Shown here in pieces: positions 40,365 to 55,758 of a stretch of DNA of 64,000 bases. Numbering within the stretch: the stretch's first letter is position 1; each line of letters starts with the position of its first letter. Made by a program: the position numbers and the translations under genes. The DNA comes from an uncultured Bacilli bacterium. GTDB taxonomy: Bacteria; Bacillota_I; Bacilli_A; RF39; UBA660. Below the pieces are notes generated by a model, which was given only the letters and a program-made list of their open reading frames with translations, was not told the DNA's origin and did not search any database. Location of the stretch: contig CALVOW010000002.1 of assembly GCA_944350445.1 (NCBI GenBank), forward strand, positions 5,636 to 69,635. The letters run 5' to 3'.

Positions 40365-40368
40365 ATAT

Positions 40369-40443
40369 CGCAGGGTGGAGCAGTAGTAGCTTACGAGTCT
40401 CTTTAGCTCGTGGTCGTAGGTGCAATTCCTACCCCTGCAACCA
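40369..40443 (+). tRNA. Phage tRNA with anticodon CTT and initiator-type identity elements (non-canonical D/T loops)
   Basis: 75-nt cloverleaf with standard arm lengths and encoded CCA. Acceptor CGCAGGG/CCCTGCA with C1xA72, G2:C71, C3:G70, A73. D stem GAGC/GCTT (A11:T24). Anticodon stem CGAGT/GCTCG, loop CTCTTTA. T arm GTAGG-TGCAATT-CCTAC. Confidence 0.55.
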
Positions 40444-40468
40444 GAAGTCAATTAAGGAGGTGGTATCG

Positions 40469-40819
40469 AAGCAAAGAAAATTTAAAAATAGCAAAGAATT
40501 TTACAATAAATTTAAAGAGTATGTAGTCTATTGTAAAAAGGAAGAAAGATTGCCTAATATTGCAGGTTTTTGCGTCTATTGCGATATAAATAGAGATACT
40601 TTTTACGCACAAGAAGAACTATATTCCGACACTTTTAAAAAAATAAATGAAATTTTAGAAGATGAGGCTTTAAATAATAAGTTTTTAAATGATGCTAGAA
40701 TTATTTTTTACATGAAAAATAAATGTGGTTATAAGGATAAACAAGAAATCGATACCACTTCTTCTAATAAAATTACAATAATCAATGATTTACCAAGTGA
40801 TGGCAATGAAGATAAGTAG
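40469..40819 (+). CDS. terS: Terminase small subunit; proposed AAG start
   Basis: ..QRKFKNSKEFYNKFKEYVVYCKKEERLPNIAGFCVYCDINRDTFY is a typical TerS N-terminal HTH region. AAGGAGG (40454-40460), 8 nt, AAG 40469. The only in-frame canonical codon (GTG 40460) abuts the SD. Further upstream the frame runs through the tRNA and the terminator. Confidence 0.6.
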   Translation, partial: KQRKFKNSKEFYNKFKEYVVYCKKEERLPNIAGFCVYCDINRDTFYAQEELYSDTFKKINEILEDEALNNKFLNDARIIFYMKNKCGYKDKQEIDTTSSNKITIINDLPSDGNEDK

Positions 40820-42170
40820 TCAAATAGCACCATCATTTTATAAGACTTTTAATAGTTATAAAACTCACCAAATATATAATGGAGGTCGTGGCTCTACTAA
40901 AACATCAATGATTAGTTTAAAAATCGTTTATAATTGCCTAAAAGAATATAATTGTTCAGTTGTGGTTTTGAGAAAACATCAAAATCAGTTAAGAAAGTCA
41001 GTTTATAAAGAGATAAAAAGAGCGTGTTCAAGACTTGGTCTTGTTGATGGTGTTCATTATAATAGCACGGTTTCGCCGATGGAAATAAAATTTCTACAAA
41101 ATGGAAATACAATTTATTTTGCTGGCGGTGATGATTTTGAAACAGTGAAGGGAACAATAGACGAAAATAAGTTAATTAAAATTGTGTGGTTTGAAGAATT
41201 GACGGGTTGGGATAACTCAGAAGATATAGATCAAATAGTTGCCACTTTTACAAGAGGAAATAACGATTGGTTTATGGCTTTATACTCCTATAATCCGCCA
41301 AAAAACAAATTCGCATGGATAAATAAATGGTGCGAGTCTATGATGTTGAGAGACGATTATTTAGTTTCCGAAACTGATTATAGAACAGTACCAGAGAAAT
41401 GGTTAGGCAAAATGTTCATTGATGAAGCAGAGAGGATGAAGAAGTTCGATAACAAAAGGTATAGATGGATATATCTAGGTGAAGTCATTGGGATGGAAGG
41501 CATGATATACAATCCAGAAACAATAGAATATGTTGATAAAGACTATATATCTAAGAATAACCTAAGAATACTTTACTTAGACTTTTCAGTCGATGGTGGT
41601 CATCAAACGAGTGCTACTACTTGTGGATGTTTCGGATTAGCAAATGACGGATATTGGTACTTATTAGATACTTATTATTATTCTCCAAATGAAAAGCCTA
41701 AAAAGAAAGCACCAAGTGAACTATCGAAAGACATATTTAATTTTGAAATAGCAATGATTAAAACGTGGAAATGCGCCGAAGATAAAGAGACTATAGATAG
41801 TGCAGAAGGCGCTTTACGAAATCAGTTGTATACCGATTATGGCAAGAGATTCCATCCTGTTAATAAAGGAAAGAATAAAGAAGAACTGATTGATTATTCA
41901 CAAGCCTTTCTAGCAAAAGGAAGATTTAGAGTGTTATTAAACAACAATAATAAGATATTTAAAAAAGAAAATGAAAATTACATGTGGAAAGAAGGTACAG
42001 TTGAAAAAGGTAAGCCTGAGCCTGATAAAACGGAGAAAGAGTTTATTGGCGAAGAGCCTTACTACAACAGTTGGTCTAATGATTACAGTTATTACTATGC
42101 CGATCATACACAAGATGTTTTCCAATACTGGGTAAGAGATAATTTAAGCAAATTAGGAATAAAGGAGTAA
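40806..42170 (+). CDS. terL: Terminase large subunit (PBSX-type)
   Basis: ...YNGGRGSTKTS is a Walker A-like motif, followed by a nuclease domain. 454 aa. ATG 40806 overlaps the terS end. Confidence 0.85.
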   Translation: MKISSQIAPSFYKTFNSYKTHQIYNGGRGSTKTSMISLKIVYNCLKEYNCSVVVLRKHQNQLRKSVYKEIKRACSRLGLVDGVHYNSTVSPMEIKFLQNGNTIYFAGGDDFETVKGTIDENKLIKIVWFEELTGWDNSEDIDQIVATFTRGNNDWFMALYSYNPPKNKFAWINKWCESMMLRDDYLVSETDYRTVPEKWLGKMFIDEAERMKKFDNKRYRWIYLGEVIGMEGMIYNPETIEYVDKDYISKNNLRILYLDFSVDGGHQTSATTCGCFGLANDGYWYLLDTYYYSPNEKPKKKAPSELSKDIFNFEIAMIKTWKCAEDKETIDSAEGALRNQLYTDYGKRFHPVNKGKNKEELIDYSQAFLAKGRFRVLLNNNNKIFKKENENYMWKEGTVEKGKPEPDKTEKEFIGEEPYYNSWSNDYSYYYADHTQDVFQYWVRDNLSKLGIKE

Positions 42171-42172
42171 AT

Positions 42173-42499
42173 ATGATGAATGACTTAATTAATATAATAA
42201 ACAATATAGATTGGCAAGGAATTGCTAATGAAATAAAAAAGTTGCAAGAAGAGAATCAAAGATTAAAAGCAATGATAAATGGCTTTCTAAATGGTGTAGA
42301 AAAAGATAAAAATGCAAAAGAAGTTAAAATATTTCACGTATGCAAATATACATCGTTATTAAATGAATATCAGAGATGGTTAGAAAAAGAAAAAGAAGAA
42401 AAATATAGAGATTGTGGAATTACTCAAAAAGCTATAACAAAATGCTATGAGAAATTAATAGAGTTAAGAAAAAAATATGAGGAGAGTAATATAAAATGA
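42173..42499 (+). CDS. Hypothetical coiled-coil protein
   Basis: 108-aa ORF with SD AAGGAG. Confidence 0.5.
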   Translation: MMNDLINIINNIDWQGIANEIKKLQEENQRLKAMINGFLNGVEKDKNAKEVKIFHVCKYTSLLNEYQRWLEKEKEEKYRDCGITQKAITKCYEKLIELRKKYEESNIK

Positions 42500-42573
42500 G
42501 TGATGCAGTAATAATTACATTGATAATTTGTATAACATTAGTAGGTTTAGCTTGGGTAGGCAGAGATAAGTGA
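42496..42573 (+). CDS. Possible 25-aa hydrophobic peptide
   Basis: ATG overlaps the upstream stop. MSDAVIITLIICITLVGLAWVGRDK. Very short, so low confidence. Confidence 0.25.
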   Translation: MSDAVIITLIICITLVGLAWVGRDK

Positions 42574-42585
42574 GGAGTGATTTAA

Positions 42586-44064
42586 AAGGAATTATATCAA
42601 GATATACAGAGTAAATTAAGCAAAAAGGGTATAAATCTAGTAGTTGGCGATATTTACGATATGATGGCTATATGGAAGTCGTGGTATCGTGGTAATGTTA
42701 ATGACTTTCATTATTTTCAAATGAAGATGGCAGATGGTACTACTAAAAAATGTGAAAGACTTACTATGAATATGCCTAAAAAAGTATGTGAAGACTTTGC
42801 TAAACTGCTATGGTCAGAAAAGGTGCAAATAAAGCTCGATAAGAAGAAAAACACTGAAAGACTACTAGAAGTATTAGATAGCAAAGAAAACAACTTTAAA
42901 GTTAACTTTCCTAACTTTTTAGAACGTGTTTTTGCTTTAGGAACTGGTGTTACTGTAGAATACCGTAAAAATGAAAAAACTCTTATCGATTATGTTGATG
43001 GTGATGTGGTTATTCCATATATGTACACTAATAGTTATATAAATGGTTTAATTACTGTTAGTAGATTTACGAAAGGTACTGATACTAATAAAAAATACTT
43101 CACTCATATTACTTATCATGAATTTAAAGATAATAAATATACAAAATTGAACGAACTCTATAAATCTAGTAATGAAACAACTGTAGGAAAAGAAGTTAAC
43201 TTCAATGATATGTTTCCTAATGTTTTAGAATTTGAAGAGTTTGAAACAGATAATCCTCATTTTCAAGTATGGAAGCCTGCAGTTGCTAATAATTTTGATA
43301 CAGATAGTCCAATGGGATTGTCTATACTTGCCAATCAAATTGATAAGTTTAAGGCTATAGATACAGAATATGACAGCTTTAATCGTGAGTTTCGAACTGG
43401 TAAGAAAAGAGTTCTGATTAGTAAAGAGGCAGTAAAGAAACATTATGTGCCTGATCCAGAAAAAGAAGGAAAAGTTAATTTAGTTAGTTATTTTGACAAT
43501 AATGATGAAGTATATGTAGCTATTGCAGGGATGGAAGATCAACCTGTTAAAGAAATCGATTTTAACTTGAGATATCAAGAACATATCAGTTCAATAAATG
43601 CTCAGTTGAATTACATTAGTGCAGGTGTTGGTTTAGGGCAGAACTACTACAACTTTGATGGACAAGGTGTTAAAACTGCTACTGAAGTAGTATCAGAGAA
43701 TAGCGACACTTATAGAACTAAGAAACATCATGAATTAATGGTTAATGACTGTCTATATGATTTGATTAACGCGATATGTGAGCTTGAAAATATTCCTTAT
43801 AAATCAATTAATATAGTTTTTGACGACTCAATTATCGAAGATGAAAATACATTAATTAAGAGAGGGTTAGAGCTATATCAAAATAAAGTTATTTCACTTG
43901 AGAAATTTATGCAAAAATATCTACATTACGAAAACAGTGAAATTCAAGAAGAAATAGCAAAAATCCAAAACGAAAACAAGTTAGTTCAACCTGAAGGTAT
44001 GGACTTTTTTGGTATGGAACAAGATGTAGAACCACAAGAAACAGAAGTAGTTGAAAAAGGGTGA
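42586..44064 (+). CDS. Portal protein (SPP1 Gp6-like); proposed AAG start
   Basis: About 490 aa, between terL and the MuF-like gene. GAGGAG (42572-42577), 8 nt, AAG 42586. In-frame TAA at 42583. The first ATG (42661) has no SD. Confidence 0.65.
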   Translation, partial: KELYQDIQSKLSKKGINLVVGDIYDMMAIWKSWYRGNVNDFHYFQMKMADGTTKKCERLTMNMPKKVCEDFAKLLWSEKVQIKLDKKKNTERLLEVLDSKENNFKVNFPNFLERVFALGTGVTVEYRKNEKTLIDYVDGDVVIPYMYTNSYINGLITVSRFTKGTDTNKKYFTHITYHEFKDNKYTKLNELYKSSNETTVGKEVNFNDMFPNVLEFEEFETDNPHFQVWKPAVANNFDTDSPMGLSILANQIDKFKAIDTEYDSFNREFRTGKKRVLISKEAVKKHYVPDPEKEGKVNLVSYFDNNDEVYVAIAGMEDQPVKEIDFNLRYQEHISSINAQLNYISAGVGLGQNYYNFDGQGVKTATEVVSENSDTYRTKKHHELMVNDCLYDLINAICELENIPYKSINIVFDDSIIEDENTLIKRGLELYQNKVISLEKFMQKYLHYENSEIQEEIAKIQNENKLVQPEGMDFFGMEQDVEPQETEVVEKG

Positions 44065-44069
44065 TATAA

Positions 44070-46013
44070 ATGTCTTTAGATGAACTAGAAGAACAAGTTG
44101 AAAGGCTTTATATCGATATGGAAAATGAACTGCTCTTAAATATCGCTAAGAAGTTATCTCAAGGCAAGCCTATGGAGATAGATAAGTGGGATAGCGAAAA
44201 TAATCAACCATTATATGGCAGTGGTGGTGTTAATGAATGGCAGTTAGAAAGATTAAGGCAATTAAATGGCCTTAACGAAGAGAATGCTAAAATAATTGCT
44301 AAATATTCGGGTAAGACAGTTAAAGAGGTAGAAAAAGTCTTTGATAGAGCTAGAGAGATAGGCCAAGAGAAGGACAAAGGCCTTATTGAAGAAGGAGTTA
44401 AAAGAGGTTTGTTAAATGAGATAGATAAGACCGTTGAAGATGCGCTTGTAAGAGATATATTGGCAAATGCAATGACAGAAGTATTAACTACATTTAATAA
44501 GCAAAATAATAGTCTTCTGATGAGTGCAGGAGATGAATATGTAGCTATAGTTAATAAAGTTTCTTCCCAAGTATTATCTGGCACTAAAACTACTGTTAAA
44601 GCTATGCAAGAGGCAGTTAGTCAGTTTGCTGAAAAAGGCTTAACTGGTTTTACAGCCAGAAATGGAGCAAGATGGAATCCAGAGGGCTATACAAAGATGG
44701 TTATTCGTACAAATACACAAAATACAATAAATCGTATTCAAGACGAGAGAATACAAGCCTGTGGTGGAGATTTCATAGAAATTAGCTCACATATAGGTGC
44801 TAGACCTTTATGTAGCCAGGATCAAGGGCAAGTATTTTCATTGAGTGGTTATTCAGGCTATATAGAAGATTTAGACGGTGGCAAAGTTAAAGTTAGACCG
44901 TGGAGTTCTTCAACATATGGAAAGCCAGCTGGAATATTAGGAATCAATTGTCGTCATTCAAGATATATGTTTGTTCCTGGCTTGTCAAAAAAAAGAGAAA
45001 TGGATTTCACTAAAGCAGAAAATGACGAAATCTATATTGAAAGTCAGAAACAAAGATTGTATGAAAGGACTATCCGAAACAAAAAAAGAGAAATAGCAAT
45101 GCTTAAACAAACAGGAGCAGAACCTAGTTATGTTAAGAGAAAACAAAATAGTTTAAGCAATACTAGAAAAGAATACCTAGAATTTTTAGATAAAACTGGT
45201 AGAACTAGAATAACAGCGAACGAATGGATAGGTAGTACGTCGTTAAGTACTAAAAATATTTCTAAAACAAGAAAGAAAACAAAGACTAACATTAATTATT
45301 CTAAAATGAAACAAACGTCAACAAATTTAAAACCACAAAAATACAATATTGATGAGTATAAAGATGATATAATTAAGAATTATAAGTATTATTCTCAAGA
45401 CAAAGTGTTAAAAAGTATGGGACGTTTTAGTTCTGATAGCAACTTATTTATAGAGCGACAATTAAATAGCAAAGGGTTTGACAAATTGCCTACTAAATTA
45501 TCAGCAATTGAATTTGAGAAACTATCATCTAAAGATTATATAAAAGTTAAAAGAGGTCTTAAAGATTATAATGGAATATCTGCAGAAAAATTGAAAGATG
45601 ATTTTATAAATGGTAAACTATATGTAGGTAGAGGGAATTTTGGAAGTGGAACTTATACAGCTGTTGATAGTGCTATTGCAGAAAATTATGGTAATACCAT
45701 TATTGATATAGCTATACCAAAAAATGTAAATATAATAAATTATAAAGATTTATTAAAAATTAAAAAAGAAAATTTCACAAAGTTAGATAGTTTGTTATAT
45801 TCCAATGATTTTAAAGAAAAATATGGCAGTACTTTTAAAACAGTACTAGAAAAATCGTTAGAAGATTATTCCACATATGCAATATATATGAATTACGATG
45901 TAATACAAGTTGATGTTGAAGATTATAAAAGATTACTAAATATTACAGACGTTGACAATTTACATCCATATTATATAATACTTAATCGAGGAAAAGTTAT
46001 TGTTAAGGAGTGA
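44070..46013 (+). CDS. Head morphogenesis protein (SPP1 gp7 / Mu F-like) with about 230-aa C-terminal extension
   Basis: ...RWNPEGYTKMVIRTNTQNTINRIQDERIQACGGDFIEISSHIGARPLCSQDQGQVFSL is the MuF core. An extra C-terminal domain follows from about residue 420. Confidence 0.7.
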   Translation: MSLDELEEQVERLYIDMENELLLNIAKKLSQGKPMEIDKWDSENNQPLYGSGGVNEWQLERLRQLNGLNEENAKIIAKYSGKTVKEVEKVFDRAREIGQEKDKGLIEEGVKRGLLNEIDKTVEDALVRDILANAMTEVLTTFNKQNNSLLMSAGDEYVAIVNKVSSQVLSGTKTTVKAMQEAVSQFAEKGLTGFTARNGARWNPEGYTKMVIRTNTQNTINRIQDERIQACGGDFIEISSHIGARPLCSQDQGQVFSLSGYSGYIEDLDGGKVKVRPWSSSTYGKPAGILGINCRHSRYMFVPGLSKKREMDFTKAENDEIYIESQKQRLYERTIRNKKREIAMLKQTGAEPSYVKRKQNSLSNTRKEYLEFLDKTGRTRITANEWIGSTSLSTKNISKTRKKTKTNINYSKMKQTSTNLKPQKYNIDEYKDDIIKNYKYYSQDKVLKSMGRFSSDSNLFIERQLNSKGFDKLPTKLSAIEFEKLSSKDYIKVKRGLKDYNGISAEKLKDDFINGKLYVGRGNFGSGTYTAVDSAIAENYGNTIIDIAIPKNVNIINYKDLLKIKKENFTKLDSLLYSNDFKEKYGSTFKTVLEKSLEDYSTYAIYMNYDVIQVDVEDYKRLLNITDVDNLHPYYIILNRGKVIVKE

Positions 46014-46017
46014 TAGT

Positions 46018-46266
46018 TTGAATATTTTTGAAGATTTAGCAGAAAACGAAAAAAAAATTGGAATGTTGTTAGATATTATTTCTGGTTGTGACAATCAAGG
46101 AAAACCTATTGAAATGGATATAAAAGAAAGGAAATATCGAAGAGAAATCTATAATAAAGCAGAACGATTAGGAATAAAAGCATTTGATATAAATGAATAT
46201 TCGGAAAAAGATAAAAAGTTTATGCAAAAATGTATAGAACAATTCAATGAAATTAGCACCAAATAA
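46018..46266 (+). CDS. Hypothetical phage protein (TTG start)
   Basis: AAGGAG, 7 nt, TTG 46018. 82 aa. Followed by the hairpin AGCACC-AAATAA-GGTGCT-TTT. Confidence 0.5.
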   Translation: MNIFEDLAENEKKIGMLLDIISGCDNQGKPIEMDIKERKYRREIYNKAERLGIKAFDINEYSEKDKKFMQKCIEQFNEISTK

Positions 46267-46279
46267 GGTGCTTTTATTA

Positions 46280-46322
46280 TGCCTTAATAGTTTTAGTAGG
46301 TGCAACTCCTACAAAGGCACCA
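46280..46322 (+). other. tRNA-like minihelix (acceptor-like stem plus T arm plus CCA)
   Basis: TGCCTT(A)...(A)AAGGCA-CCA flanks GTAGG-TGCAACT-CCTAC. The T arm is 16/17 identical to that of the tRNA at 40416-40432. No D or anticodon arm. Confidence 0.35.
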
Positions 46323-46430
46323 TAGGACGAGCAATCGTTCTTTTATTATGTCTTTTACTTAGTTAGACAATAAAGAGATTAAGGTGTGGGAATTACTTTG
46401 TTACCCAAATAAAAAACTTAGGAGGAAATT

Positions 46431-46952
46431 ATGGAAAATAATGAAAATGCAGTTACTCAGACTGAAACAGTAGAAACTGAAAATAAAACTGAGGTGTCAG
46501 GAGAACAACCTGTTGAAAAAAATGAAAAAACTTTTACTCAAGAAGAAGTGAACGCGATGCTAGCAAAAGAAAAGAAAAAAATGCCTAGCAAAGAGGATAT
46601 GAAGGCTTTTAATGAGTGGAAAGAAAGTCAAAAAACAGAAGAAGATAAGAAAAATGAAATCTTGTTAGAAAATGAAACTTTAAAAAAACAACTTGCTTAT
46701 GCAGAGAATAAATCAGTAGTCGCGAATGCTGGTGTTGATTCTAAATTTCAAAAGTTTGTTTTGAGTGAAGTTTCAGAAATTGAGGGAGACTTTGAAGACA
46801 ATTTAAAAGATTATTTAAAAGAAAATCCTCAATTCTTAATTAGTAAAATTGAAACACCTAAAACAAATGGTGTAGCAACTAAAAAAATCAGTGATGATGC
46901 CGAAGATGGTGTTACTGCGATTTTAAAACAGAAGCACCCAGATTTATTTTAA
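46431..46952 (+). CDS. Capsid scaffolding protein
   Basis: 173 aa, acidic, coiled-coil. Lies immediately upstream of the major capsid gene. SD AGGAGG. Confidence 0.6.
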   Translation: MENNENAVTQTETVETENKTEVSGEQPVEKNEKTFTQEEVNAMLAKEKKKMPSKEDMKAFNEWKESQKTEEDKKNEILLENETLKKQLAYAENKSVVANAGVDSKFQKFVLSEVSEIEGDFEDNLKDYLKENPQFLISKIETPKTNGVATKKISDDAEDGVTAILKQKHPDLF

Positions 46953-46969
46953 GAAGGAGAGTGATTTAA

Positions 46970-48106
46970 AAGGCAAATCCAATTGGTTTAAATGGTACTC
47001 ACGAAAGACAAGAAAGATATGCTAGTCAAATTGTTAAATTAATGAGACCTTACTTCAGAATTAGAAGTACATTTTCAAGAGATTACGAAGGTAATCCAAC
47101 AGCTGGAGCAGTTAAAGTCCCAGTAAGAAACATGGACGTAAATGTTCGTGATTATGATGTTAAAAATGGTTTAGCATTAGAGCAAAGTGCTACAAACTAT
47201 CTAAATATCCCTATCAATTTTAATAAAGGTATTAATGAGTTAATTGATGGATATGAAGCAGCAGCAGTTCCTGATAACTTAATGGCTCAAAGAATGGAGA
47301 GCGCAGCTTATTCTTTAGCTAAAACATTTGAGGAAGATGCTATTAACGCATTAGTAAGTAATTCTACAGTATCTACTCAACCAGATGGAACTGTAGATAA
47401 TATTTATATGAATATCGTCAAAGATATTGCTCAATTAGCTAAACGTGGTGTAGATAAGAATAGAATGTATGTTGCTGTATCTTACGCAACTGAAGCTTTA
47501 TTACTTGCTAACCCAGTATATGCTAATACTTCATCACAAATTGGTGCAGAATTAGCTAGAAATGGTGTTGTTAACAGAATCAATGGTGTTAATATTATTA
47601 CTCAAGACTTGGGAGAAACAGAAGACGGACAAGCAATTGAATATATTGTTTACGGTGTTGACTGGACTCAAGCTATTGACGAGTGGATGGTTAATCCCGT
47701 TGTTGTTGATTTAACTACTGGATCAAGCGAATATATCGGTGCTAGTGCATTAAAAGGACGTATGGTTTATGCTGATGCTGTAACTGATAAAAACGCAGTT
47801 ATTGTTAAGGCTAAAGTTAGTGTATCTGCAGTAGAAATTACACCAGTTGCTGGTTTATCTGGAACTTTAGCAGATTCTACTAAAGTAGCAGATTTAGATA
47901 GCGTAGGTGGCAGTGGAACTGTAACTTATAGCTTACCAACTGGCGTAGCTGATAATGATAAGTTTGAAATTAGTACAAATACTGTAGTAACTAAGGACGC
48001 TACTACAGGTCCAGGTACTTATACTATTGTAGTAAAAGGAACTGATACAGCAAGCAATACAGCATCTGCAACTGCTGTTATTACAGTAGCAGAAGCTAGT
48101 GAATAA
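46970..48106 (+). CDS. Major capsid protein with C-terminal Ig-like domain; proposed AAG start
   Basis: GGAG (46956-46959), 10 nt, AAG 46970. In-frame TAA at 46967. ATG 47042 has no SD. The N-terminal ..ANPIGLNGTHERQERYASQIVKLMRPYF..SRDYEGNPTAGAVKVP looks like one continuous coat-protein N-terminus. Confidence 0.65.
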   Translation, partial: KANPIGLNGTHERQERYASQIVKLMRPYFRIRSTFSRDYEGNPTAGAVKVPVRNMDVNVRDYDVKNGLALEQSATNYLNIPINFNKGINELIDGYEAAAVPDNLMAQRMESAAYSLAKTFEEDAINALVSNSTVSTQPDGTVDNIYMNIVKDIAQLAKRGVDKNRMYVAVSYATEALLLANPVYANTSSQIGAELARNGVVNRINGVNIITQDLGETEDGQAIEYIVYGVDWTQAIDEWMVNPVVVDLTTGSSEYIGASALKGRMVYADAVTDKNAVIVKAKVSVSAVEITPVAGLSGTLADSTKVADLDSVGGSGTVTYSLPTGVADNDKFEISTNTVVTKDATTGPGTYTIVVKGTDTASNTASATAVITVAEASE

Positions 48107-48126
48107 TATTAGAGAGGAGTGGTGTT

Positions 48127-48489
48127 ATGGTAACAAAGGAAGATTATGAAAAATACTTTGGGCAAACTGCTCCTTCTAATTTTTCAAGATTAGAATATTT
48201 AAGTTTGAATACAATTAAATCTATAATAACTAAACCAATTCCAAAAAAAACTTGTTCATGTTATGAAGATTTTAAAAAAGCAATTTTGGAACAGATTAAT
48301 TATTATGATTTAAATTCAGACTTGTTAGATAGCACTAAAACAGGTGGCTATACTTTGGGTAGTTACTCGGAAAGTGCTAGTGAAATAGAAACATCTAAAA
48401 GCATAGATAGATTAAGCCCAGTAGCTTATGAAATTCTTTTAAATTGTGGCTTATTGCAAAGCCAGTTAGGAGGTTGTTGTTTATGGTAA
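48127..48489 (+). CDS. Head-tail connector/adaptor (by position)
   Basis: 120-aa ORF after GAGGAG. First gene after the capsid gene. Confidence 0.5.
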   Translation: MVTKEDYEKYFGQTAPSNFSRLEYLSLNTIKSIITKPIPKKTCSCYEDFKKAILEQINYYDLNSDLLDSTKTGGYTLGSYSESASEIETSKSIDRLSPVAYEILLNCGLLQSQLGGCCLW

Positions 48490-48635
48490 AATACAAAATG
48501 GGAGCAATTATTAAAGACGTTCCTAAAGGTGCTGAAAAGTGGTATAAGTTAGCTGGTTGGAAGAAATTAGAGACTTCTAAAAAGAAAGAAGAAAAAGATG
48601 ATAAAACCGATACCGAAAAGACTGTTACCGCATAG
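48483..48635 (+). CDS. Small Lys-rich phage protein
   Basis: AGGAGG, 9 nt, ATG 48483. 50 aa. Confidence 0.4.
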   Translation: MVKYKMGAIIKDVPKGAEKWYKLAGWKKLETSKKKEEKDDKTDTEKTVTA

Positions 48636-48933
48636 CTGCATCTATAAAGAGTATTTAGGCAATACTGGTGAGGGTGATGAATGGGCCGACGGAATTCCAT
48701 TATCTAACGTTAAAATAGAAGAAAAAATGCAATTGAAAGTTACTTCAAACGGCCGTGAAGTAATAGGTAATGCAAGATTATTCTACGATTTACAAAATTC
48801 TTCTGGTTTAACCGAAAAACCTGTTCAAAACAGCCTTATAACCTTTAACGATCGAGTATATCACATTGTAGATGTTGCTGTTTTATGTGGTGAAGAAGAC
48901 ACGGCACATCATTATGAGGTAATGCTTAAATGA
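48598..48933 (+). CDS. Minor capsid/head-closure protein
   Basis: MIKPIPKRLLPHSCIYKEY... resembles the Firmicute-phage minor capsid (head closure) N-terminus. The start is not supported by an SD. Confidence 0.5.
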   Translation: MIKPIPKRLLPHSCIYKEYLGNTGEGDEWADGIPLSNVKIEEKMQLKVTSNGREVIGNARLFYDLQNSSGLTEKPVQNSLITFNDRVYHIVDVAVLCGEEDTAHHYEVMLK

Positions 48934-49283
48934 AAAAATTTAATAATTTTAAAGAAGCTTTCCAATGGACTAAAGAAGTCATTGAAAAAGGTTGCATTAG
49001 TGCTGAATCGGTGATCGCTGAACAAATTTATAAAGATTCGAATGAATTTACATATCGTGAAAGCGGTGAAATGTACAAATCAGGAGAAACTCATAGTAAA
49101 TTTAATCAGGGAATAATAATTGAAAGAACTCCTTATGTTCGTAGACGTTATTATGAAGGTGGTACGCCCGGCGCAGGTAACAAAAAAGCACAACCAAGAT
49201 GGTTTGAAAAAACTGTTGCTAAATATAAGAATGATTACCAAGAACAGGCTTCTAAAATTATTGATATGCAAAAGAAAGGATAA
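48930..49283 (+). CDS. Minor capsid / tail-completion-type protein
   Basis: 117-aa ORF with ATGA-type coupling. Confidence 0.5.
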   Translation: MKKFNNFKEAFQWTKEVIEKGCISAESVIAEQIYKDSNEFTYRESGEMYKSGETHSKFNQGIIIERTPYVRRRYYEGGTPGAGNKKAQPRWFEKTVAKYKNDYQEQASKIIDMQKKG

Positions 49284-49286
49284 TAT

Positions 49287-49670
49287 ATGATAGATAGTTT
49301 AGTTACGTTATTACGAAACGAAGTTGAAAAAGCTGGATATAAATGTTATTCTCCAGATTTACCTCAAAATGATGAAAATATAGTAGCTTTATCTTTAGGA
49401 GAAGGAACAAATGAACGTTCTTTAAACAAAGATATTCTATACTCTAGAATACCTTTTTATTTGCTTATTAGAGGTACTTCTAATGATACGGAGACTAGAG
49501 GTATTGCTGATACTATTTTTAAACAATTAGACCATAAAACAGACCTAGAAAATGACAATTTAAGAGTAATTTTAATTAGTTGCAATATGCCAAACTATGC
49601 TTTTAGAGATGAAAACCAAAGAATACATTACAACATTAATTGTAATATTCAAGTCGAGTGGAAGGAGTGA
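49287..49670 (+). CDS. Minor capsid / tail terminator-type protein
   Basis: 127-aa ORF with SD AAGGA. Confidence 0.5.
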   Translation: MIDSLVTLLRNEVEKAGYKCYSPDLPQNDENIVALSLGEGTNERSLNKDILYSRIPFYLLIRGTSNDTETRGIADTIFKQLDHKTDLENDNLRVILISCNMPNYAFRDENQRIHYNINCNIQVEWKE

Positions 49671-49675
49671 TTTTA

Positions 49676-50125
49676 AAGGCACAATACGAAAGTTCAGTTA
49701 AACAATTTAAAGTTCAATTTGATTTAAGCGAGAATGAGACTCCAGATTGGGAGGATCTAATCGCTTTAACTATGTCATATGATCAAAGTGAAACTCTTGA
49801 TACGTGGCAAGATTTATATAATTTCTTATCTAATAACGTAAAAACCGGATTAGACCCAACATGGTCAGTATCTGTTAAATTAGATAAATCAAGTCCAGTT
49901 TGTCAATTCATTTTAGATAAAGAATTTGCAGTAGGAGCAGAAGCAACTGCTAAATGTAAAATTATTAATTTACTTAAAGGAACGAGTGGTAAACAGATTG
50001 AATTTACTGCTACTTTAAGTTCAATTGCGTATGAAGCTACTGCCGAAGAAGTGTTACAAGTAGATTTTGATTTAAAAGTTTATGATAATTCTACATTTGA
50101 AGAAACAGATTACACAGCAGGGTAG
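49676..50125 (+). CDS. Major tail (tube) protein; proposed AAG start
   Basis: The position directly before the chaperone pair fits a tail tube gene. AAGGAG (49662-49667), 8 nt, AAG 49676. In-frame GTGs at 49658/49667 lack a spaced SD. Confidence 0.55.
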   Translation, partial: KAQYESSVKQFKVQFDLSENETPDWEDLIALTMSYDQSETLDTWQDLYNFLSNNVKTGLDPTWSVSVKLDKSSPVCQFILDKEFAVGAEATAKCKIINLLKGTSGKQIEFTATLSSIAYEATAEEVLQVDFDLKVYDNSTFEETDYTAG

Positions 50126-50167
50126 GCTTTAGTGTCTACCCTTTATTTTTTTAGGAGGAAGAAAGAA

Positions 50168-50596
50168 ATGTTAACATTAACTAGAAAAAAATATGAAATA
50201 GAGGAGCCTATTCGTTTAGAAGATGAAAATGGAAACTTACTATATGAGTTCACAATGCAAATTACTGCAGAGGAAAAAAATAGGATACGAGATTTAATAT
50301 TTTCGCAAGAAGATGTGAAAGATGGTAGAAATTTATCTAAATTGGAACGTGAAGGCAAAATTGATGAAATGAACGAATTAGAATTGGAAATTTTAGAAAA
50401 AGCTAAAAAACGTCAAGAAGAATTTGAGAATATTTGCTTTAAGGAGCATAAAGAACCATTTAAAGAAAAAGCTGGTGCTAAATATGAAGAAATGGTTGAA
50501 ATGTTATTCGATTTTTTCGTAAAAGCCTTCGCAGACAAGAGAATATCACAGATAAATACTATCAATTCACACCTTCGCAAGATTACAAACAATTAA
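50168..50596 (+). CDS. Tail assembly chaperone (G-like)
   Basis: AGGAGG, 9 nt, ATG 50168. 142 aa, acidic. Lies between the tube and tape-measure genes. Confidence 0.65.
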   Translation: MLTLTRKKYEIEEPIRLEDENGNLLYEFTMQITAEEKNRIRDLIFSQEDVKDGRNLSKLEREGKIDEMNELELEILEKAKKRQEEFENICFKEHKEPFKEKAGAKYEEMVEMLFDFFVKAFADKRISQINTINSHLRKITNN

Positions 50597-51147
50597 ACCT
50601 TTTAAGAATAGATGATAAAGAATATAAGCTTAATATTACATTTAAATCCGTCTTAAAAATATTTAATTTAATAAAAGATGATAGAGTAGCAGAGTGCTTA
50701 AATATTTTAGGCATTAATGATTTAACTGAAGAAGAACAGATTTTTGTTTTAAATGAAATTGCTGAATATGTATTTAATACAAATAAAAAAGTATCTTCTA
50801 GTAAAAAAACGTTTGATTTAAACTTGGACTACAAATATTATTTTGTAGACTTTTTAAATTTTGGGATAAATCTTAATACAGATGATGTTCCATGGTGGGA
50901 GTTTGACGCGATTTTAGAGGCTATTATGCTCGATGATAAATCTACAATATCAAAAGTATTAAGTTATAGATTATATGAAAAACCACCAAAAAATGCAAAA
51001 GTTCAAGAAGATAAGCGACATAGGTTTATGATGGAAATGAAAAGAAAATATTCTTTACCCGAAACGTTAAGTCCTGAACAAAGTTTAGAAAAATTATGGA
51101 ATTATGCGGAAAAAAAGGCAGGTGAAAGTAAAAGGATGGAGAAATAA
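50518..51147 (+). CDS. Tail assembly chaperone -1 frameshift extension (GT-like; Gp15-like sequence)
   Basis: The -1 frame is open from 50500 to 51147 and has no canonical start before TTG 50824. The slippery T TTT TTC at 50512-50518 is in X XXY YYZ register with the G frame. Confidence 0.55.
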   Translation, partial: RKSLRRQENITDKYYQFTPSQDYKQLNLLRIDDKEYKLNITFKSVLKIFNLIKDDRVAECLNILGINDLTEEEQIFVLNEIAEYVFNTNKKVSSSKKTFDLNLDYKYYFVDFLNFGINLNTDDVPWWEFDAILEAIMLDDKSTISKVLSYRLYEKPPKNAKVQEDKRHRFMMEMKRKYSLPETLSPEQSLEKLWNYAEKKAGESKRMEK

Positions 51148-51152
51148 AATTC

Positions 51153-52883
51153 AAGGTTTCATTAGATGGAAATGAAGCTGAAAAAACAATTAGCACGTTA
51201 TCGAAAAGTTCTGATACATTAAGTAAAAAAATTACTTCTTTTGGAACGAAAATGACAATAGGAGTAACAGCACCATTGACTGCATTAGCAACCGCAGGCG
51301 TTAAGTATAATGCAACAATGGAAACTTATCTAGCTAATTTAACAACATTGTTAGGTGGAAATGAACAAGCTGCAGAAGAACTTCTTAATACATTAAGAGA
51401 AATGGCTAATACAACTCCTTACGAAGCGACTGACTTAGTTAAAGCCACACAAAAAATGATGGCTTTTGGAATTAGTGCACAAGATAGTTTGAAATACTTA
51501 CAAATGCTAGGTGATGTCGCCATGGGTGATGCTAACAAAATGGATAGCTTAACGTTAGCATTTTCCCAAATTAGTGCAAGTGGTAGAGCCACAATGGAAG
51601 ATATTAATCAAATGATAGATCAAGGATTTAACCCACTTACAATTGTTGCACAAAAAACAGGAGAGAGCATGGCTGATTTAAGAGATAGAGTATCTGCTGG
51701 CGGTGTGTCCTTTGAAGAAATAGCTGGAGCGTTCGAAACAGCCACTAGTGAAGGTGGAATATTCTATCAATCAATGGATAAAGCTTCACAGACCACAGAG
51801 GGAAAGATTTCGTCGTTAAAAGATAATTTTAGTACTGCTTTAGGAACAATGACTGAAAGTTTACTTCCATTTGTAACTAGTGCTGTTGATGGCTTATCTA
51901 AACTTGCAAATTGGTTTTCAAACTTAGATGAAGGTGGGAAAACATTAGTTTTAACTATCGCTGGAATAGCTCTTGCGATAGGGCCTCTAAGCACAGCTAT
52001 TGGTGGTTTAATTTCCATCGGCTCTAAAATTAAAACAATAGTTACTGTCGTTAAATCTTGGGGAATAGTGACTAAAACTATGACTGCAGCCCAAACTGCA
52101 CTTAATTTGGTATTAAATGCTAATCCAATCGCGCTAGTTGTAACAGCAATTGTTGCATTAATTGCAATTATTGCAACATTATGGTCTAAATGCGAATGGT
52201 TTAGGGATGGCGTAATGACCGTTATAAATGCCATATGGGGAGCTATACAGTCAGTAGGCTCTTTTATTATGGGCGTGTTCCAGAACGTATTTAACTTTGT
52301 TTCTGGAATATTTACAAATTTATGGAACGTTATTCAAACAGTAGTAAATACGATAGTGTCTATCTTTTCAACTGCGTGGAACACTATTAAGAATGTCGCA
52401 ACTACTGTTTGGAACGGTATCTTAGGTTTATTTAGCGCTGGTGGTAAGATTTTTACTGGTGTAGTAGAAGGTATTGCCGGAGTATTTAAAACTATAGTTA
52501 ATGCAATTATTAAAGGTATTAATAAAGTAATAAGAATACCGTTTGACACAATAAATGGTATTTTAAACTTCATTAGAAACATAGATATTTTAGGAGTTGC
52601 TCCTTTCAAAGGACTATGGAAACAAAATCCACTTCCAGTTCCTCAAATACCAACTTTAAGTGTTGGTACAAATTATGTTGCAGCAGAAGGATTGGCATAT
52701 CTCCATGAAGGAGAGGCGGTTGTTCCTAAAAAATATAATCCTGCTGTTGGAGGCGGAATGACTATAAATTCTCCGATTGTTGTCGAAGTTTATAACGATA
52801 ATGTATCAACTCTTCAACTAGATAGTAAAACAGTCGCAGAGGTCGTAAATAAATATAATGAAAATAGAGAGGTGGCGGTTTAA
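51153..52883 (+). CDS. Tail tape measure protein; non-canonical start (AAG 51153 or AAG 51132)
   Basis: TP901-type core (..EATDLVKATQKMMAFGISAQDSLKYLQMLGDVAMGD..) plus hydrophobic repeats. The frame is open from TAA 51129, and there is no ATG/GTG/TTG before ATG 51252. Yet ..IKFKVSLDGNEAEKTISTLSKSSDTLSKKITSFG.. looks like a TMP N-terminus. Confidence 0.7.
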   Translation, partial: KVSLDGNEAEKTISTLSKSSDTLSKKITSFGTKMTIGVTAPLTALATAGVKYNATMETYLANLTTLLGGNEQAAEELLNTLREMANTTPYEATDLVKATQKMMAFGISAQDSLKYLQMLGDVAMGDANKMDSLTLAFSQISASGRATMEDINQMIDQGFNPLTIVAQKTGESMADLRDRVSAGGVSFEEIAGAFETATSEGGIFYQSMDKASQTTEGKISSLKDNFSTALGTMTESLLPFVTSAVDGLSKLANWFSNLDEGGKTLVLTIAGIALAIGPLSTAIGGLISIGSKIKTIVTVVKSWGIVTKTMTAAQTALNLVLNANPIALVVTAIVALIAIIATLWSKCEWFRDGVMTVINAIWGAIQSVGSFIMGVFQNVFNFVSGIFTNLWNVIQTVVNTIVSIFSTAWNTIKNVATTVWNGILGLFSAGGKIFTGVVEGIAGVFKTIVNAIIKGINKVIRIPFDTINGILNFIRNIDILGVAPFKGLWKQNPLPVPQIPTLSVGTNYVAAEGLAYLHEGEAVVPKKYNPAVGGGMTINSPIVVEVYNDNVSTLQLDSKTVAEVVNKYNENREVAV

Positions 52884-53245
52884 AGGATAATGTATTACAA
52901 ATTGGTAGTACTCCTATTAAGTTTTTGCAAAAAAACGGATATGGGTTAAAGGAAGATCAAGATATTGTACTTAGTACTTTAACTATGGCCGATGGTACAG
53001 AACGTAGGAACATTGCCGAAAAGAAAAAAGTTACTATAAGTTTGAAATTTACAAAAATTGATGGAAATACACTTTCAAAATATTTACTCTTAATGGATAA
53101 TGACTTTAAAGCAACATATTATTCAGTTAAGTATAAAACTACAAAAACAGCCACTTTTCGTTTAACAGAAAAACCAACCACCGAAATGATAGGCACATAT
53201 TTAGACATTTTAGAAGAATTTGAAGTCACCTTGGAGAGTGTATAA
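52883..53245 (+). CDS. Small tail protein downstream of TMP; proposed AAG start
   Basis: GAGG (52869-52872), 10 nt, AAG 52883, overlapping the TMP stop (TAAAG). In-frame TAG at 52865. The first canonical codon, TTG 52925, has no SD. Confidence 0.5.
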   Translation, partial: KDNVLQIGSTPIKFLQKNGYGLKEDQDIVLSTLTMADGTERRNIAEKKKVTISLKFTKIDGNTLSKYLLLMDNDFKATYYSVKYKTTKTATFRLTEKPTTEMIGTYLDILEEFEVTLESV

Positions 53246-55758
53246 TGATAGCGGTTAGTGATTCAATAAAAAATGCTTATAATAATGACACTACCCAAAG
53301 AAAACCATATATAATAGTTGGCAATAACACTTATTATATTCAAAATATGGACTTACAGGCAGATTGCTATGACGAAGGGAATATCATAGGTAACGCAATA
53401 GCTAAAATACTTAAATTCGATATTGAAACAGAATATGTAGAAGGATTAGATGAGTTTGAACTTTATGATTCAATTTGGACTGGTAATCAATATGAATCAG
53501 TCTTTTTAGGAACCTTTAAACTCTATGATGAAGAAGGAACAGATGATTATTTTAGTTCTGTTACAGCATATGATCTACTCATTAAATTTAATGCTCAATA
53601 TGATCCTTCACAAATGACTTATCCATCTACTGTTTTTGGATTGCTCCAAAATATCTGTAATCAAGCAGGAGTAACGTTAGAAAATACATCTATAGTCAAC
53701 GGAACTCAACAGCTTGAGACTGAATTATTTGTTGAGGGAGAAACTCTAAAAACTATTCTAAATGCTATATGTCAAGTTTCTGGAACTTTTGGTATGATAA
53801 GTAATGATAAGCTAAGACTAGGTTTAAAAGGCACACAAACAATTTCTCTACAAAAATATCAAATATCAGAACCGGAGTTTAAAAGAACTACGCAAAATAT
53901 TAATCAGGTAGTTTTAGGAATGACTGACATAGAAGGAGAAGAAGTCAAGTATCCACAAGATTCTCAAATAAGCGGTACCATCCACAAACTAACAATTAAT
54001 AATAACCCATTTGTTTATAATCAAACATTACGTGAAGCATATATTCAAAATATTTATAATCAAGTAAATGGTTTTGGATATGAGGCTATGTCGATGAAAT
54101 GGGAAGGATTATCTTATGTAGAATTAGGAGATTTGTTAAGTGTAGATGGACATTCTAGTATGGTATTACGATACAATATCAAAAGCCCAAATGGATTAGA
54201 ATCTACTTTGGAAGCACCGTCAATTATTGATAGTTCTGTTGAGTATTACGAGAACTCTAATTCGATTGAAAATCGTCAAAAAAGGACTGAATATATAGTT
54301 GATAAAGCGAATCAAAGAATTACACAAATTGTCGAAGAAATTGGCGATAGATCAGAAAAATCAACATCAATAACTCAAGATATTGATTCGATTGTGCAAC
54401 AAGTTTCGCAAATTGAAACTCTTACATCTGATCTAACACAAAATAGTTCTTTAACTATTGAAGATGCTTTTGAGGGGGAAATAGTAAAATTTTCAATTTC
54501 TGGGAATATGTCTTTACTTTATCCAAGTGATGATTTATATCCGAGTAATGATTTATACCCGCTAGACTCATATTTAGTTATTCAATATGGAGACGAAACG
54601 CAAGATAAAATACATTTGCCGTTAAATTATTTAAGATATTTAAATGCAGCTGCTTACGATGAATTTATTGTTGAAAATGGACAAGCAAAAATCATAAGAC
54701 GAGTTGGAGAGAACGAAGATGGCTCTTTTTATGCATTAACTACTGAAATTGAAGAAGATAAAGGCGATTTAGTCATCGAACTTAAAGAAGGTTATAACAA
54801 ACTGTGGTTAGAATCTTTCTTTGATTTACCTTTGCAATATAGTGCCAAATATGTAATTAAAAGTGATTATACTGATGTGTTCGCGACAAAAGTTGAAATG
54901 CATTCTGAAATTAGCCAAACTGCAAGTGAAATTAATTTAGAGGTATCAAAAAAAGTTGATGAGAACGAAGTAATCGCAGCAATAAATCTTACAAGTGAAA
55001 CTGCTACAATTGACGCGAGTAAAATTAATTTGAATGGGTATGTAACTGTAAGTGATTTAGCCGGAACTGGAACTACAACTATTAATGGGTCCAATATTAA
55101 AACTGGGACAATAGATGCTAGTTTGGTTAGTGTAGTAAATTTAAATGCAAGCAATATAAGCAGCGGAACTTTATCAGCTGACAAAATTAATGGTGGAACT
55201 ATAAGTGCTAGTTCAATCAATTTAGGAAATAACAAATTTGCTGTTGACACAAACGGTAATTTAACAGCGACGAGTGGTAACATCGGTGGATGGACAATAG
55301 CAAGCAATTTATTAAAATGCGAAGTAGACAATTATGAAGTAACTATCATGCCAGGAACTAATTCAAACAAAGACTTTTTGATAGTTCATAATACATCAGA
55401 TAATACTTATCCATTTTATGTTAGAACAAATGGTTATTTAAGTGCTACAAATGCTAACATTCAAGGAACTATTTCAAGTTCTTCAATAAATGGCTCGACA
55501 ATTTCGGGTGGCAGTATAAGTATTAGCAGAGGTAATTATTATTTTAATATGGGATTATCAACAAATAATCCTAATTGTAGTGGTTTAAACGTTGGAACAG
55601 AAGGAATCAAAGCACAATCAGGAGTTGCAGCAACTGGATTTTCGATTTACGAAAGCGATACTGGTAAAGATTATAATCTTCAAATTAGAGATTATCATGG
55701 TAATGTTCATCATTTAACCTTTAGAGGCGGGATAATAACTAAATGGGAATATACTTAG
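53245..55758 (+). CDS. Tail-associated/baseplate protein (Tal-like, prophage tail endopeptidase-type N-domain)
   Basis: 837 aa, directly after the TMP and small tail protein. The C-terminal third has G/S/T/N-rich short repeats (..GTIDASLVSVVNLNASNISSGTLSADKINGGTISASSINLG..). Confidence 0.6.
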   Translation: MIAVSDSIKNAYNNDTTQRKPYIIVGNNTYYIQNMDLQADCYDEGNIIGNAIAKILKFDIETEYVEGLDEFELYDSIWTGNQYESVFLGTFKLYDEEGTDDYFSSVTAYDLLIKFNAQYDPSQMTYPSTVFGLLQNICNQAGVTLENTSIVNGTQQLETELFVEGETLKTILNAICQVSGTFGMISNDKLRLGLKGTQTISLQKYQISEPEFKRTTQNINQVVLGMTDIEGEEVKYPQDSQISGTIHKLTINNNPFVYNQTLREAYIQNIYNQVNGFGYEAMSMKWEGLSYVELGDLLSVDGHSSMVLRYNIKSPNGLESTLEAPSIIDSSVEYYENSNSIENRQKRTEYIVDKANQRITQIVEEIGDRSEKSTSITQDIDSIVQQVSQIETLTSDLTQNSSLTIEDAFEGEIVKFSISGNMSLLYPSDDLYPSNDLYPLDSYLVIQYGDETQDKIHLPLNYLRYLNAAAYDEFIVENGQAKIIRRVGENEDGSFYALTTEIEEDKGDLVIELKEGYNKLWLESFFDLPLQYSAKYVIKSDYTDVFATKVEMHSEISQTASEINLEVSKKVDENEVIAAINLTSETATIDASKINLNGYVTVSDLAGTGTTTINGSNIKTGTIDASLVSVVNLNASNISSGTLSADKINGGTISASSINLGNNKFAVDTNGNLTATSGNIGGWTIASNLLKCEVDNYEVTIMPGTNSNKDFLIVHNTSDNTYPFYVRTNGYLSATNANIQGTISSSSINGSTISGGSISISRGNYYFNMGLSTNNPNCSGLNVGTEGIKAQSGVAATGFSIYESDTGKDYNLQIRDYHGNVHHLTFRGGIITKWEYT

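Follow-up and report, generated by a model that had tools for sequence, protein, structure and literature searches.

The start codons AUG, GUG and UUG, served by one initiator tRNA, are regarded as near-universal. Within a stretch of 64,000 nucleotides from an uncultured Bacilli bacterium (assembly GCA_944350445.1, contig CALVOW010000002.1, positions 5,636 to 69,635 of the forward strand; hereafter the window, at its full length), a prophage carries a tRNA gene with the anticodon CUU ahead of its packaging, head and tail genes, and in six of these genes a Shine-Dalgarno (SD) sequence is followed by an in-frame AAG. We consider it very probable that a phage-supplied orthogonal initiator tRNA(CUU) starts these morphogenesis genes at AAG, as an earlier note on this DNA had proposed; the homologous ATG codons of relatives, the features of the tRNA, its co-occurrence with AAG starts and its covariation with the start codon all support that proposal.

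The closest described systems are engineered. Initiator tRNAs with mutated anticodons initiate at the matching non-AUG codons, as described in PMC11744186 and in work cited by PMC7949028, and further initiator tRNAs with altered anticodons have been engineered (bioRxiv 10.1101/2021.05.25.445580 and 10.64898/2025.12.21.695813). These constructs, among them Escherichia coli tRNAfMet with CUA, GAC, AAC and other anticodons and mammalian initiators with AAG or GUC, combine a changed anticodon with a complementary start codon behind a normal ribosome-binding site, as the window appears to do. They are laboratory constructs, whereas the phage pair is natural, conserved, present in at least four anticodon classes and tied to a defined gene set, and the phage tRNAs carry a conserved U31.G39 pair and U37 that are absent from the engineered initiators. 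Our full-text literature search, with subscription-only papers outside its scope, returned only engineered analogues and no natural phage or cellular initiator tRNA dedicated to a codon other than that read by CAU, in agreement with the earlier note, which knew of no such natural system.

Near-cognate initiation at GUG, UUG, the AUU of infC and, rarely, CUG also places a non-AUG codon behind an SD sequence and is sometimes regulatory, as might be the case here. Such starts depend on a mismatch between the codon and tRNAfMet(CAU) and work inefficiently, with values of 0.1-1% for CUG, AUU, AUC and AUA (PMC11744186), whereas the phages described here have a dedicated cognate tRNA, and UGC, one of the start codons in question, is not near-cognate to AUG.

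Phages that recode stop codons (codes 15 and 4; crAss-like and Lak phages) resemble our case in that a phage tRNA alters the meaning of a codon, and their recoded codons are concentrated in late and structural genes, so that translation of these genes depends on the phage tRNA (PMC9523058). Stop-codon recoding, however, takes place at elongation with an elongator suppressor tRNA, whereas the system proposed here would act at initiation with an initiator-type tRNA and leave the elongation code unchanged. The prophage of the window does not belong to the code 15 or code 4 recoders, since its open reading frames (ORFs) are intact under code 11 and its sole tRNA has a sense anticodon rather than a suppressor one; the logic alone is alike. 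A regulatory interpretation of phage stop-codon recoding was reportedly given by Borges et al. in 2022. Finally, phages carry canonical initiator tRNAs with the anticodon CAU, of which at least 58 to 60 were recovered in our scan of viral sequences. These have their ancestry and body in common with tRNA(CUU), but they read AUG and have G31:C39 in 55 of 58 cases among the matches listed, whereas the altered classes have U31.G39.

Six late genes with AAG behind a Shine-Dalgarno sequence

The six sites, with the SD sequence, the spacing and the AAG codon, are the following.

40454..40819, plus strand: terS; SD AAGGAGG at 40454-40460, 8 nt, AAG 40469, stop 40819; phrog_606
42572..44064, plus strand: portal; SD GAGGAG at 42572-42577, 8 nt, AAG 42586; phrog_533
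46954..48106, plus strand: major capsid protein (MCP); SD AAGGAG at 46954-46959, 10 nt, AAG 46970; phrog_267
49662..50125, plus strand: putative major tail (tube) gene; SD AAGGAG at 49662-49667, 8 nt, AAG 49676
51120..52883, plus strand: tape measure protein (TMP); SD AGGTGA at 51120-51125, 6 nt, AAG 51132; phrog_991
52869..53245, plus strand: small tail gene; SD GAGGT at 52869-52873, 9 nt, AAG 52883; weak DUF6711 match

An in-frame TAA stands directly before the AAG of the portal gene (TAA 42583; next ATG at 42661) and of the MCP gene (TAA 46967; next ATG at 47042), and the TMP frame opens after TAA 51129 and has its first canonical codon at ATG 51252. The AAG of the small tail gene overlaps the TMP stop, the first canonical codon downstream being TTG 52925, and in terS the sole nearby in-frame canonical codon, GTG 40460, sits within the SD sequence. 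PHROG families back the identities of terS, portal, MCP and TMP; the tube gene matched neither PHROG nor Pfam and, like the small tail gene, owes its name to gene order only.

When every plus-strand open frame between 24.3 and 64 kb was surveyed, a strong SD sequence followed by AAG was found in only these six genes. All other prophage genes on this strand have an SD sequence with ATG or GTG, with three exceptions: two translationally coupled genes (terL at 40785 and the gene at 48598) and a frameshift ORF (50500-51147). An unbiased scan for orphan SD sequences, located 5-11 nt before a codon of an ORF of at least 100 codons that lacks a canonical start both upstream and shortly downstream, flagged only the portal, MCP, TMP and small tail genes on both strands of the whole 64 kb; terS and the tube gene were passed over only because a GTG falls inside their SD sequences. 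Among the codons flagged in this way, AAG accounted for 17 of 58 in tRNA-carrying loci versus 5 of 151 in control viral DNA.

All the coordinates that the earlier note had given for its six late genes without a usable canonical start were found again, and its observation that neighbouring late genes start in the ordinary way held in the survey apart from the coupled and frameshifted exceptions. It had also called the pattern specific to the major virion components. The restriction to a particular gene set stands and the word virion does not, as terS encodes a packaging protein and no virion component; the set is therefore one of morphogenesis genes.

AAG codons aligned with the starts of homologues

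The MCP, extended to AAG 46970, begins with (K)ANPIGLNGTHER, and from the downstream internal methionine (M25) it would begin with MRPYFRIR. We compared the extended protein with about 5.8 billion proteins. Most homologues start with M-ANAIGTNGTHERQERYA..IVKLMRP, and their ATG lies exactly at the codon aligned with the AAG; a subset of 352-354 residues starts with MRPYFRIR and consists of AAG-type phages called from the internal M25. The aligned codon among 80 viral contigs is ATG in about 65, AAG in seven and AGG in one.

The other genes gave corresponding alignments. The portal of the window (K-ELYQDIQ) matches M-ELYNNI of its relatives, in which the aligned codon is ATG (30), GTG (2), AAG (18) or, in the phage L131, AGG (1). 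The TMP of the window (K-DGEI) aligns with M-A-DGxV of the ATG-type phages L008 and L156, as well as with AAG-N-DGEV in L009 and AGG-N-A-D in L131, which places its start at 51132; of the two candidates in the earlier note, 51132 is thus upheld by the alignment and 51153 falls away. The start of the small tail gene coincides with the ATG of its L190 homologue (M-S-DYLLKIG). In terS the relatives L002 and L134 have AAG and the CCU phage L131 has AGG, and terS of L203, which starts with TTG, begins at the same position. For the tube gene, a TAA lies directly before the AAG in L005 and L001, and L131 has AGG. A stop codon directly precedes the AAG of each gene in at least some relative, as in terS of L017.

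The segment between the AAG and the first ATG of the capsid gene could also be assessed for constraint among AAG and AGG phages. Its 23 codons contain 18 variable codon columns, of which 10 are purely synonymous, including changes of AGA to CGC or CGT, and 42 changes fall on the third codon position versus 24 and 20 elsewhere. Since third-position and synonymous changes dominate, the region is evidently translated, and the putative N-terminal extension of the capsid protein is under purifying selection. By these alignments, the AAG codons are homologous to genuine ATG starts. The comparison with homologues, which the earlier note had put forward as a check, came out in favour of its proposal, as homologues begin with ATG at the aligned codon and the extended N-termini are conserved as protein.

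Public predictions for AAG-type capsids (P0001, P0002, P0005 and others) are 24 residues short and start with MRPYF..., and a few have been extended to an out-of-context upstream ATG (MILKANAIG..., MILRANAIG...). AAG-type capsids seem to be misannotated systematically because their starts are non-canonical.

A tRNA(CUU) derived from an initiator tRNA

Two tRNA genes of the window are needed for comparison.

40369..40443, plus strand: phage tRNA, putatively initiator-derived, anticodon CUU; found by ARAGORN and by the Rfam tRNA model (49.2 bits)
8196..8272, plus strand: host tRNAfMet, anticodon CAU, C1xA72, anticodon stem GGG/CCC; the comparator in this analysis

The phage gene, with the sequence CGCAGGGUGGAGCAGUAGUAGCUUACGAGUCUCUUUAGCUCGUGGUCGUAGGUGCAAUUCCUACCCCUGCAACCA, was labelled tRNA-Lys by ARAGORN. 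It has a C1xA72 mismatch at the end of the acceptor stem (CGCAGGG...CCCTGCA-ACCA), the discriminator A73 and an encoded CCA end. Its D stem, GAGC/GCUU, provides the A11:U24 pair, which is an initiator-type feature, and its anticodon loop, CUCUUUA, is closed by U31.G39.

Pattern scans recovered a family of about 24 distinct CUU sequences from 19 loci in IMG/VR, about 20 in metagenomes and several in metagenome-assembled genomes (MAGs), one metagenome copy being identical to that of the window. Positions 1 and 72 are mismatched in every member of the family (CxA in 20, AxA in 4, CxU in 1). The loop is invariant, the anticodon stem occurs in six fully paired versions and the acceptor stem in at least eight; an invariant loop on varied but fully paired stems marks a functional tRNA. 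The least altered members have 82-86% identity to the host tRNAfMet, with L118 and L036 reaching 86%, and depart from it mainly in the anticodon arm, where GGGCUCAUAACCC has become GGUCUCUUUAGCC. For the tRNA of the window, identity is 69% with the host tRNAfMet and 55% with the host tRNALys(UUU). Among isolated phages, the nearest matches are genes annotated as tRNA-Met in Campylobacter and Erwinia phages; INPHARED contained no isolated phage with this tRNA, and one near match, MT839577, has a CAU anticodon.

The pair 31:39 is U.G in all 17 CUU tRNAs, against the G:C of the CAU-type phage initiators mentioned above, and among the matches listed U31.G39 also occurs in the CAG and GCA tRNAs and in four of the six CCU tRNAs described below. 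The tRNA of the window is not a tRNAfMet, because its anticodon is CUU and it lacks the three consecutive G:C pairs of initiators. Neither is it an elongator tRNALys, because of its 1:72 mismatch, U37 and low similarity (the 55% given above); only U35, U36 and A73 agree with that identity. Judged by these features, the gene at 40369-40443 is a descendant of a bacterial initiator tRNA whose anticodon changed from CAU to CUU. The description of this tRNA as initiator-like in the earlier note is borne out by the 1:72 mismatch, A11:U24 and a family with up to 86% identity to tRNAfMet.

Two ideas about its unusual features did not hold. The elbow variant, a D-loop of 7-8 nt without GG combined with the T-loop UGCAAUU (G at position 55), occurs in 15 of 25 CUU members and might have been an adaptation to the altered anticodon; it is also present in 19 of 58 CAU phage initiators among the matches listed and is hence not specific. 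A four-base start, with U37 pairing to position -1 of the mRNA, would fit the A that is usual at -1 of AAG sites, but terS of the window has G there, and in the CCU phage L131 position -1 is A or T although position 37 is A.

Start codons that change with the anticodon

The sister phage L131 carries at 1959-2034 an initiator-like tRNA with the anticodon CCU (CGCAGAG...UUCCUAU...CUCUGCAACCA; C1xA72), and five of the window's AAG positions are AGG in this phage, namely those of terS, portal, MCP, tube and TMP. When tRNAs of any anticodon were scanned for initiator-type 5' and 3' ends, at least 74 distinct ones were found: at least 60 with CAU, at least seven with CUU, at least six with CCU (in three loop types) and at least one CAG sequence, the last in at least seven loci (L220, L233, L271, L275, L290, L295 and L320). 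The further CCU phages (L210, L243, L262, L307, L287, L238, L247 and L274) have AGG at the portal and at several head and tail genes. In the CAG phages, terS, terL, portal and the major head protein start with CTG behind a good SD sequence, and these genes belong to PHROG families other than those of the window. Two loci, L196 (1823-1896) and L197 (1029-1102), possess a 1:72-mismatched tRNA(GCA) with U31.G39. Their TMP frame has TGA directly followed by TGC after GGAGG and 9 nt, with no canonical codon for 72 codons, and the resulting N-terminus, C-ASNGALIIHTKLDN, is homologous to M-ADGSVVIETKLTN.

The codons found behind orphan SD sequences in each type of locus were as follows.

CUU loci: AAG 23, AGG 0, CTG 0, of 77 flagged
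CCU loci: AAG 4, AGG 10, CTG 0, of 47 flagged
CAG loci: AAG 3, AGG 0, CTG 13, of 93 flagged
CAU loci: AAG 6, AGG 6, CTG 5, of 462 flagged

The four AAG counts of the CCU loci are codons beside the same SD sequence as an AGG start, and phages with CAU alone have no enrichment of AAG, AGG or CTG. For a tRNA(UAG?) with C1xA72 in L306, no matching orphan starts were found in that locus. Across the four classes the putative start codons are complementary to the anticodon and change with it (CUU with AAG, CCU with AGG, CAG with CTG and GCA with TGC), and the phenomenon, as predicted from these genomes, is broader than the earlier note had it. This covariation is the strongest evidence that the candidate starts depend on the tRNA.

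Presence and absence of the tRNA point in the same direction. With duplicate loci removed and sufficient upstream sequence required, a matching non-CAU initiator-like tRNA lies upstream in 14 of 14 loci with AAG- or AGG-start portals, compared with a CUU or CCU tRNA in none of 20 loci with ATG- or GTG-start portals (Fisher p = 9e-8). By capsid start, the tRNA accompanies nine of ten AAG or AGG starts versus at most one of 26 others. Three apparent counterexamples were set aside: L001 and L007, with AAG- or AGG-start capsids and no tRNA, are prophage remnants without terminase and portal and hence uninformative, and L150, which seemed to be without the tRNA, carries a C1xU72 copy overlooked by ARAGORN and the pattern scan.

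Beyond the window, we think it likely that temperate phages of gut Bacillota have evolved modular, natural orthogonal initiator tRNAs with at least the anticodons CUU, CCU, CAG and GCA, each matched by AAG, AGG, CUG or UGC starts of packaging, head and tail genes. They would form a private initiation channel, in which translation of the morphogenesis module would require the phage tRNA and might do without the host tRNAfMet.

A possible mechanism and the points against it

The 1:72 mismatch of initiator tRNAs directs formylation and excludes EF-Tu, and IF3 monitors codon-anticodon complementarity rather than AUG as such. On this background, the tRNA would be transcribed at the head of the late operon, presumably as the first product of the late transcript because it lies between a hairpin with a T-run and terS, as also in L150 and L196, and it would be cut out by RNase P and 3' processing. 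It might then be aminoacylated by the host lysyl-tRNA synthetase (LysRS), lysine being the best guess because the LysRS identity elements U35, U36 and A73 are present. Its 1:72 mismatch and initiator-type body would cause it to be handled as an initiator, by the formyltransferase, IF2 and the ribosomal P site, and not by EF-Tu. On a 30S subunit positioned by the SD sequence, it would pair cognately with AAG to give terS, portal, MCP, tube, TMP and the small tail protein. For the host tRNAfMet, AAG would be no more than a poor near-cognate codon, so that efficient synthesis of the six proteins would need the phage tRNA.

Several observations weigh against this mechanism. In E. coli, mutants of tRNAfMet that are charged with lysine are formylated poorly and initiate weakly. 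The CAG and GCA tRNAs are devoid of the identity elements of the leucyl- and cysteinyl-tRNA synthetases (LeuRS and CysRS), since a long variable arm is missing and position 73 is A rather than U, and methionine or mixed charging is therefore possible. The anticodon stem of the window's tRNA, instead of three consecutive G:C pairs, has A29:U41, G30:C40 and U31.G39; its relatives have G:C, G:C, U.G in 10 of 17 and A:U, G:C, U.G in 7 of 17, and the full set of three G:C pairs is found in just five of the 58 CAU-type phage initiators among the matches listed. The base 3' of the anticodon is a pyrimidine, U37, invariant in the CUU class, and the elbow is non-standard, with no GG in the D-loop and UGC in the T-loop. 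The reduced G:C pairs, U37 and odd elbow could lower binding to the P site. The loci that we counted are interrelated, and the scan counts are lower bounds; they represent neither independent samples nor frequencies.

A subtype of the tRNA with A1xA72 belongs among these points as well, since the phages that carry it (L116, L035 and L046) have normal SD-ATG starts in nearly all of their morphogenesis genes. The subtype has no A11:U24 pair; its anticodon loop is that of the other CUU tRNAs and it lies upstream of terS. We had expected many AAG starts in these phages and found terS, the capsid gene and other genes with SD-ATG; the sole AAG candidate is the TMP (L116 11843, AGGAG, 9 nt, AAG), and it is not airtight. 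The A1xA72 subtype was seen in L116 (1376-1451), L035, L046, L023, L018, L084, L086 and L128.

Alternative explanations

The alternative that fares best keeps initiation by the phage tRNA and changes only its charging: a relaxed methionyl-tRNA synthetase (MetRS) would supply methionine, and the proteins would start with fMet as in the ATG-type relatives. The body derived from tRNAfMet, the retention of C34 and U36 in the CUU and CCU classes, and the many genes in which ATG has been exchanged for AAG with no other N-terminal change all agree with it, and a common charging enzyme would be simpler given that the CAG and GCA tRNAs have no LeuRS or CysRS elements. Against this, MetRS depends strongly on the complete CAU anticodon, the LysRS identity elements U35/U36 and A73 are all present, and engineered anticodon mutants of initiators are generally charged according to the new anticodon. 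We regard methionine charging as a tentative possibility, unlikely but worth keeping in mind.

A second explanation would do without a dedicated initiator. AAG differs from AUG by one (middle) base and might be a weak near-cognate start for the host tRNAfMet, with tRNA(CUU) being an ordinary elongator tRNALys that aids the decoding of AAG; phage tRNAs are usually seen as codon-usage supplements, ARAGORN named the gene tRNA-Lys, and the three G:C pairs of initiators are missing from the window's copy. An elongator, however, would hardly have a 1:72 mismatch throughout its family, A11:U24 in the window's copy and up to 86% identity to tRNAfMet. Weak reading by tRNAfMet likewise conflicts with the perfect co-occurrence of the tRNA and AAG starts in intact relatives, with four covarying classes, one of which uses UGC, a codon not near-cognate to AUG, and with the lack of enrichment of AAG, AGG and CTG in phages that have CAU alone. 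We judge this explanation very improbable.

According to a third, the gene callers are right, translation starts at the downstream codons (ATG 42661, 47042 and 51252; TTG 52925), and the SD sequences with AAG are coincidental or left over. Public automated predictions do call the capsid from M25 (352-354 aa). We give this hardly any credence, since the 24-40 codons that would be skipped are conserved as protein with synonymous variation, homologues start at the aligned codon, stops lie directly upstream of the AAG, the SD sequence precedes AAG and not the downstream ATG, and the chance of finding AAG at all six SD-defined positions, estimated from codon frequency, is about (0.03)^6. Errors of sequencing or assembly can be practically dismissed, and so can decay of the prophage to a non-functional state: the relatives are indeed metagenome assemblies, but more than 20 independent assemblies, drawn from viral, genome and metagenome collections, have the same AAG codons and the tRNA, and the prophage possesses an integrase, att repeats and complete modules for replication, packaging, head, tail and lysis, their ORFs intact.

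What initiation by a phage tRNA would mean

If the phage tRNA indeed initiates at AAG, this natural and heritable reassignment of a start codon would represent a new kind of genetic-code variation, located at initiation rather than at elongation or termination, and phages would control late-gene translation via initiation. It would also explain an annotation error, by which capsid, portal and TMP genes in public databases are called 24-72 codons short. For synthetic biology, the pairs of initiator tRNA and start codon would be ready-made, orthogonal and tested by evolution. How aminoacyl-tRNA synthetases, the formyltransferase, IF2 and IF3 accept such tRNAs becomes a question of its own, as does the use of the system: it might prevent leaky expression like a lock, hinder gene exchange or hijacking, or counter host toxins that cleave tRNAfMet.

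Concerning purpose, virion synthesis is plausibly tied to expression of the tRNA, as the earlier note had suggested. Our guess is a translational lock, by which the late proteins would be made only once the late transcript has provided the tRNA. A barrier, making the module useless to genomes lacking the tRNA, is likewise a guess. Alternatively, the system may serve to escape host nucleases that attack tRNAfMet: VapC-type toxins cut initiator tRNA (PMC4105405), and phage tRNAs whose anticodon loops are altered may, according to one proposal, evade defences that target tRNAs (PMC10264068).

Prophage setting and gene order

The host part of the window contains a tmRNA, a cluster of 12 tRNAs and the canonical initiator tRNAfMet listed above. 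The features of the prophage outside the six genes and the tRNA are given below.

24313..61216, no strand: prophage of about 37 kb, delimited by a 17-bp direct repeat, TCCCTCCTGCTCCGCCA, at both ends and by gene content
24396-25550, minus strand: integrase-like ORF, inside the prophage
38386-38997, plus strand: RNA ligase of 203 aa with a PF09414 domain, 1.4 kb upstream of the tRNA
39035-39556, plus strand: late-type transcriptional regulator
39953-40339, plus strand: small gene without family match, probably an HNH endonuclease
40341..40366, plus strand: hairpin followed by a T-run, directly 5' of the tRNA and after the stop of the small gene, read from the sequence

The repeat copies lie at 24313-24329, which is the 3' end of tRNA-Ser(GCU) and the integration site, and 36.9 kb downstream at 61200-61216; together with the integrase-like ORF they are likely to mark attL and attR of an intact prophage. 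On the plus strand, a first block for replication and recombination (replisome organiser, Sak4-like annealing protein, SSB and NinB) is followed by the RNA ligase, the late-type regulator, the small gene, the tRNA and the packaging, head, tail and lysis genes. The hairpin is terminator-like and A+T-rich, and it was missed by a consensus terminator scan; a comparable hairpin with a T-run stands upstream of the tRNA in L150 and in L196 and L197. No convincing promoter for the tRNA emerged from a consensus scan. Phage RNA ligases have a role in the repair of nuclease-cut tRNAs, and we considered whether the ligase is tied to the tRNA; among the fetched loci, just one other tRNA-bearing locus, L124, has a ligase, and the idea was dropped.

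The ORF at 50500-51147 (plus strand), listed above among the survey exceptions, has 215 codons without ATG, GTG or TTG, overlaps the end of the gene at 50168-50596 and lies upstream of the TMP. It is probably the part of the tail assembly chaperone that is added by programmed frameshifting.

Relatives have a skipping-rope RNA (RF02924, 55 bits), a tRNA-Pro(UGG) or a tRNA-Trp(CCA) in the intergenic space upstream of their scaffold and capsid genes, at L003 3656-3739, L140 9266-9342, L136 3-79 and L008 9269-9343; Rfam gave no match at the equivalent spot of the window, about 46013-46430. The closest relatives were found in MAGs assigned to uncultured Bacilli of the gut, among them Candidatus Onthousia and bins under the label 'Tenericutes'. 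In L001, an ORF of 1340 aa resembling Cas9 (284-4306; MKKYSIGLDIGTTSVGW...) lies beside a truncated capsid and tail module with AAG starts, and the locus looks like a prophage remnant adjoining a CRISPR locus.

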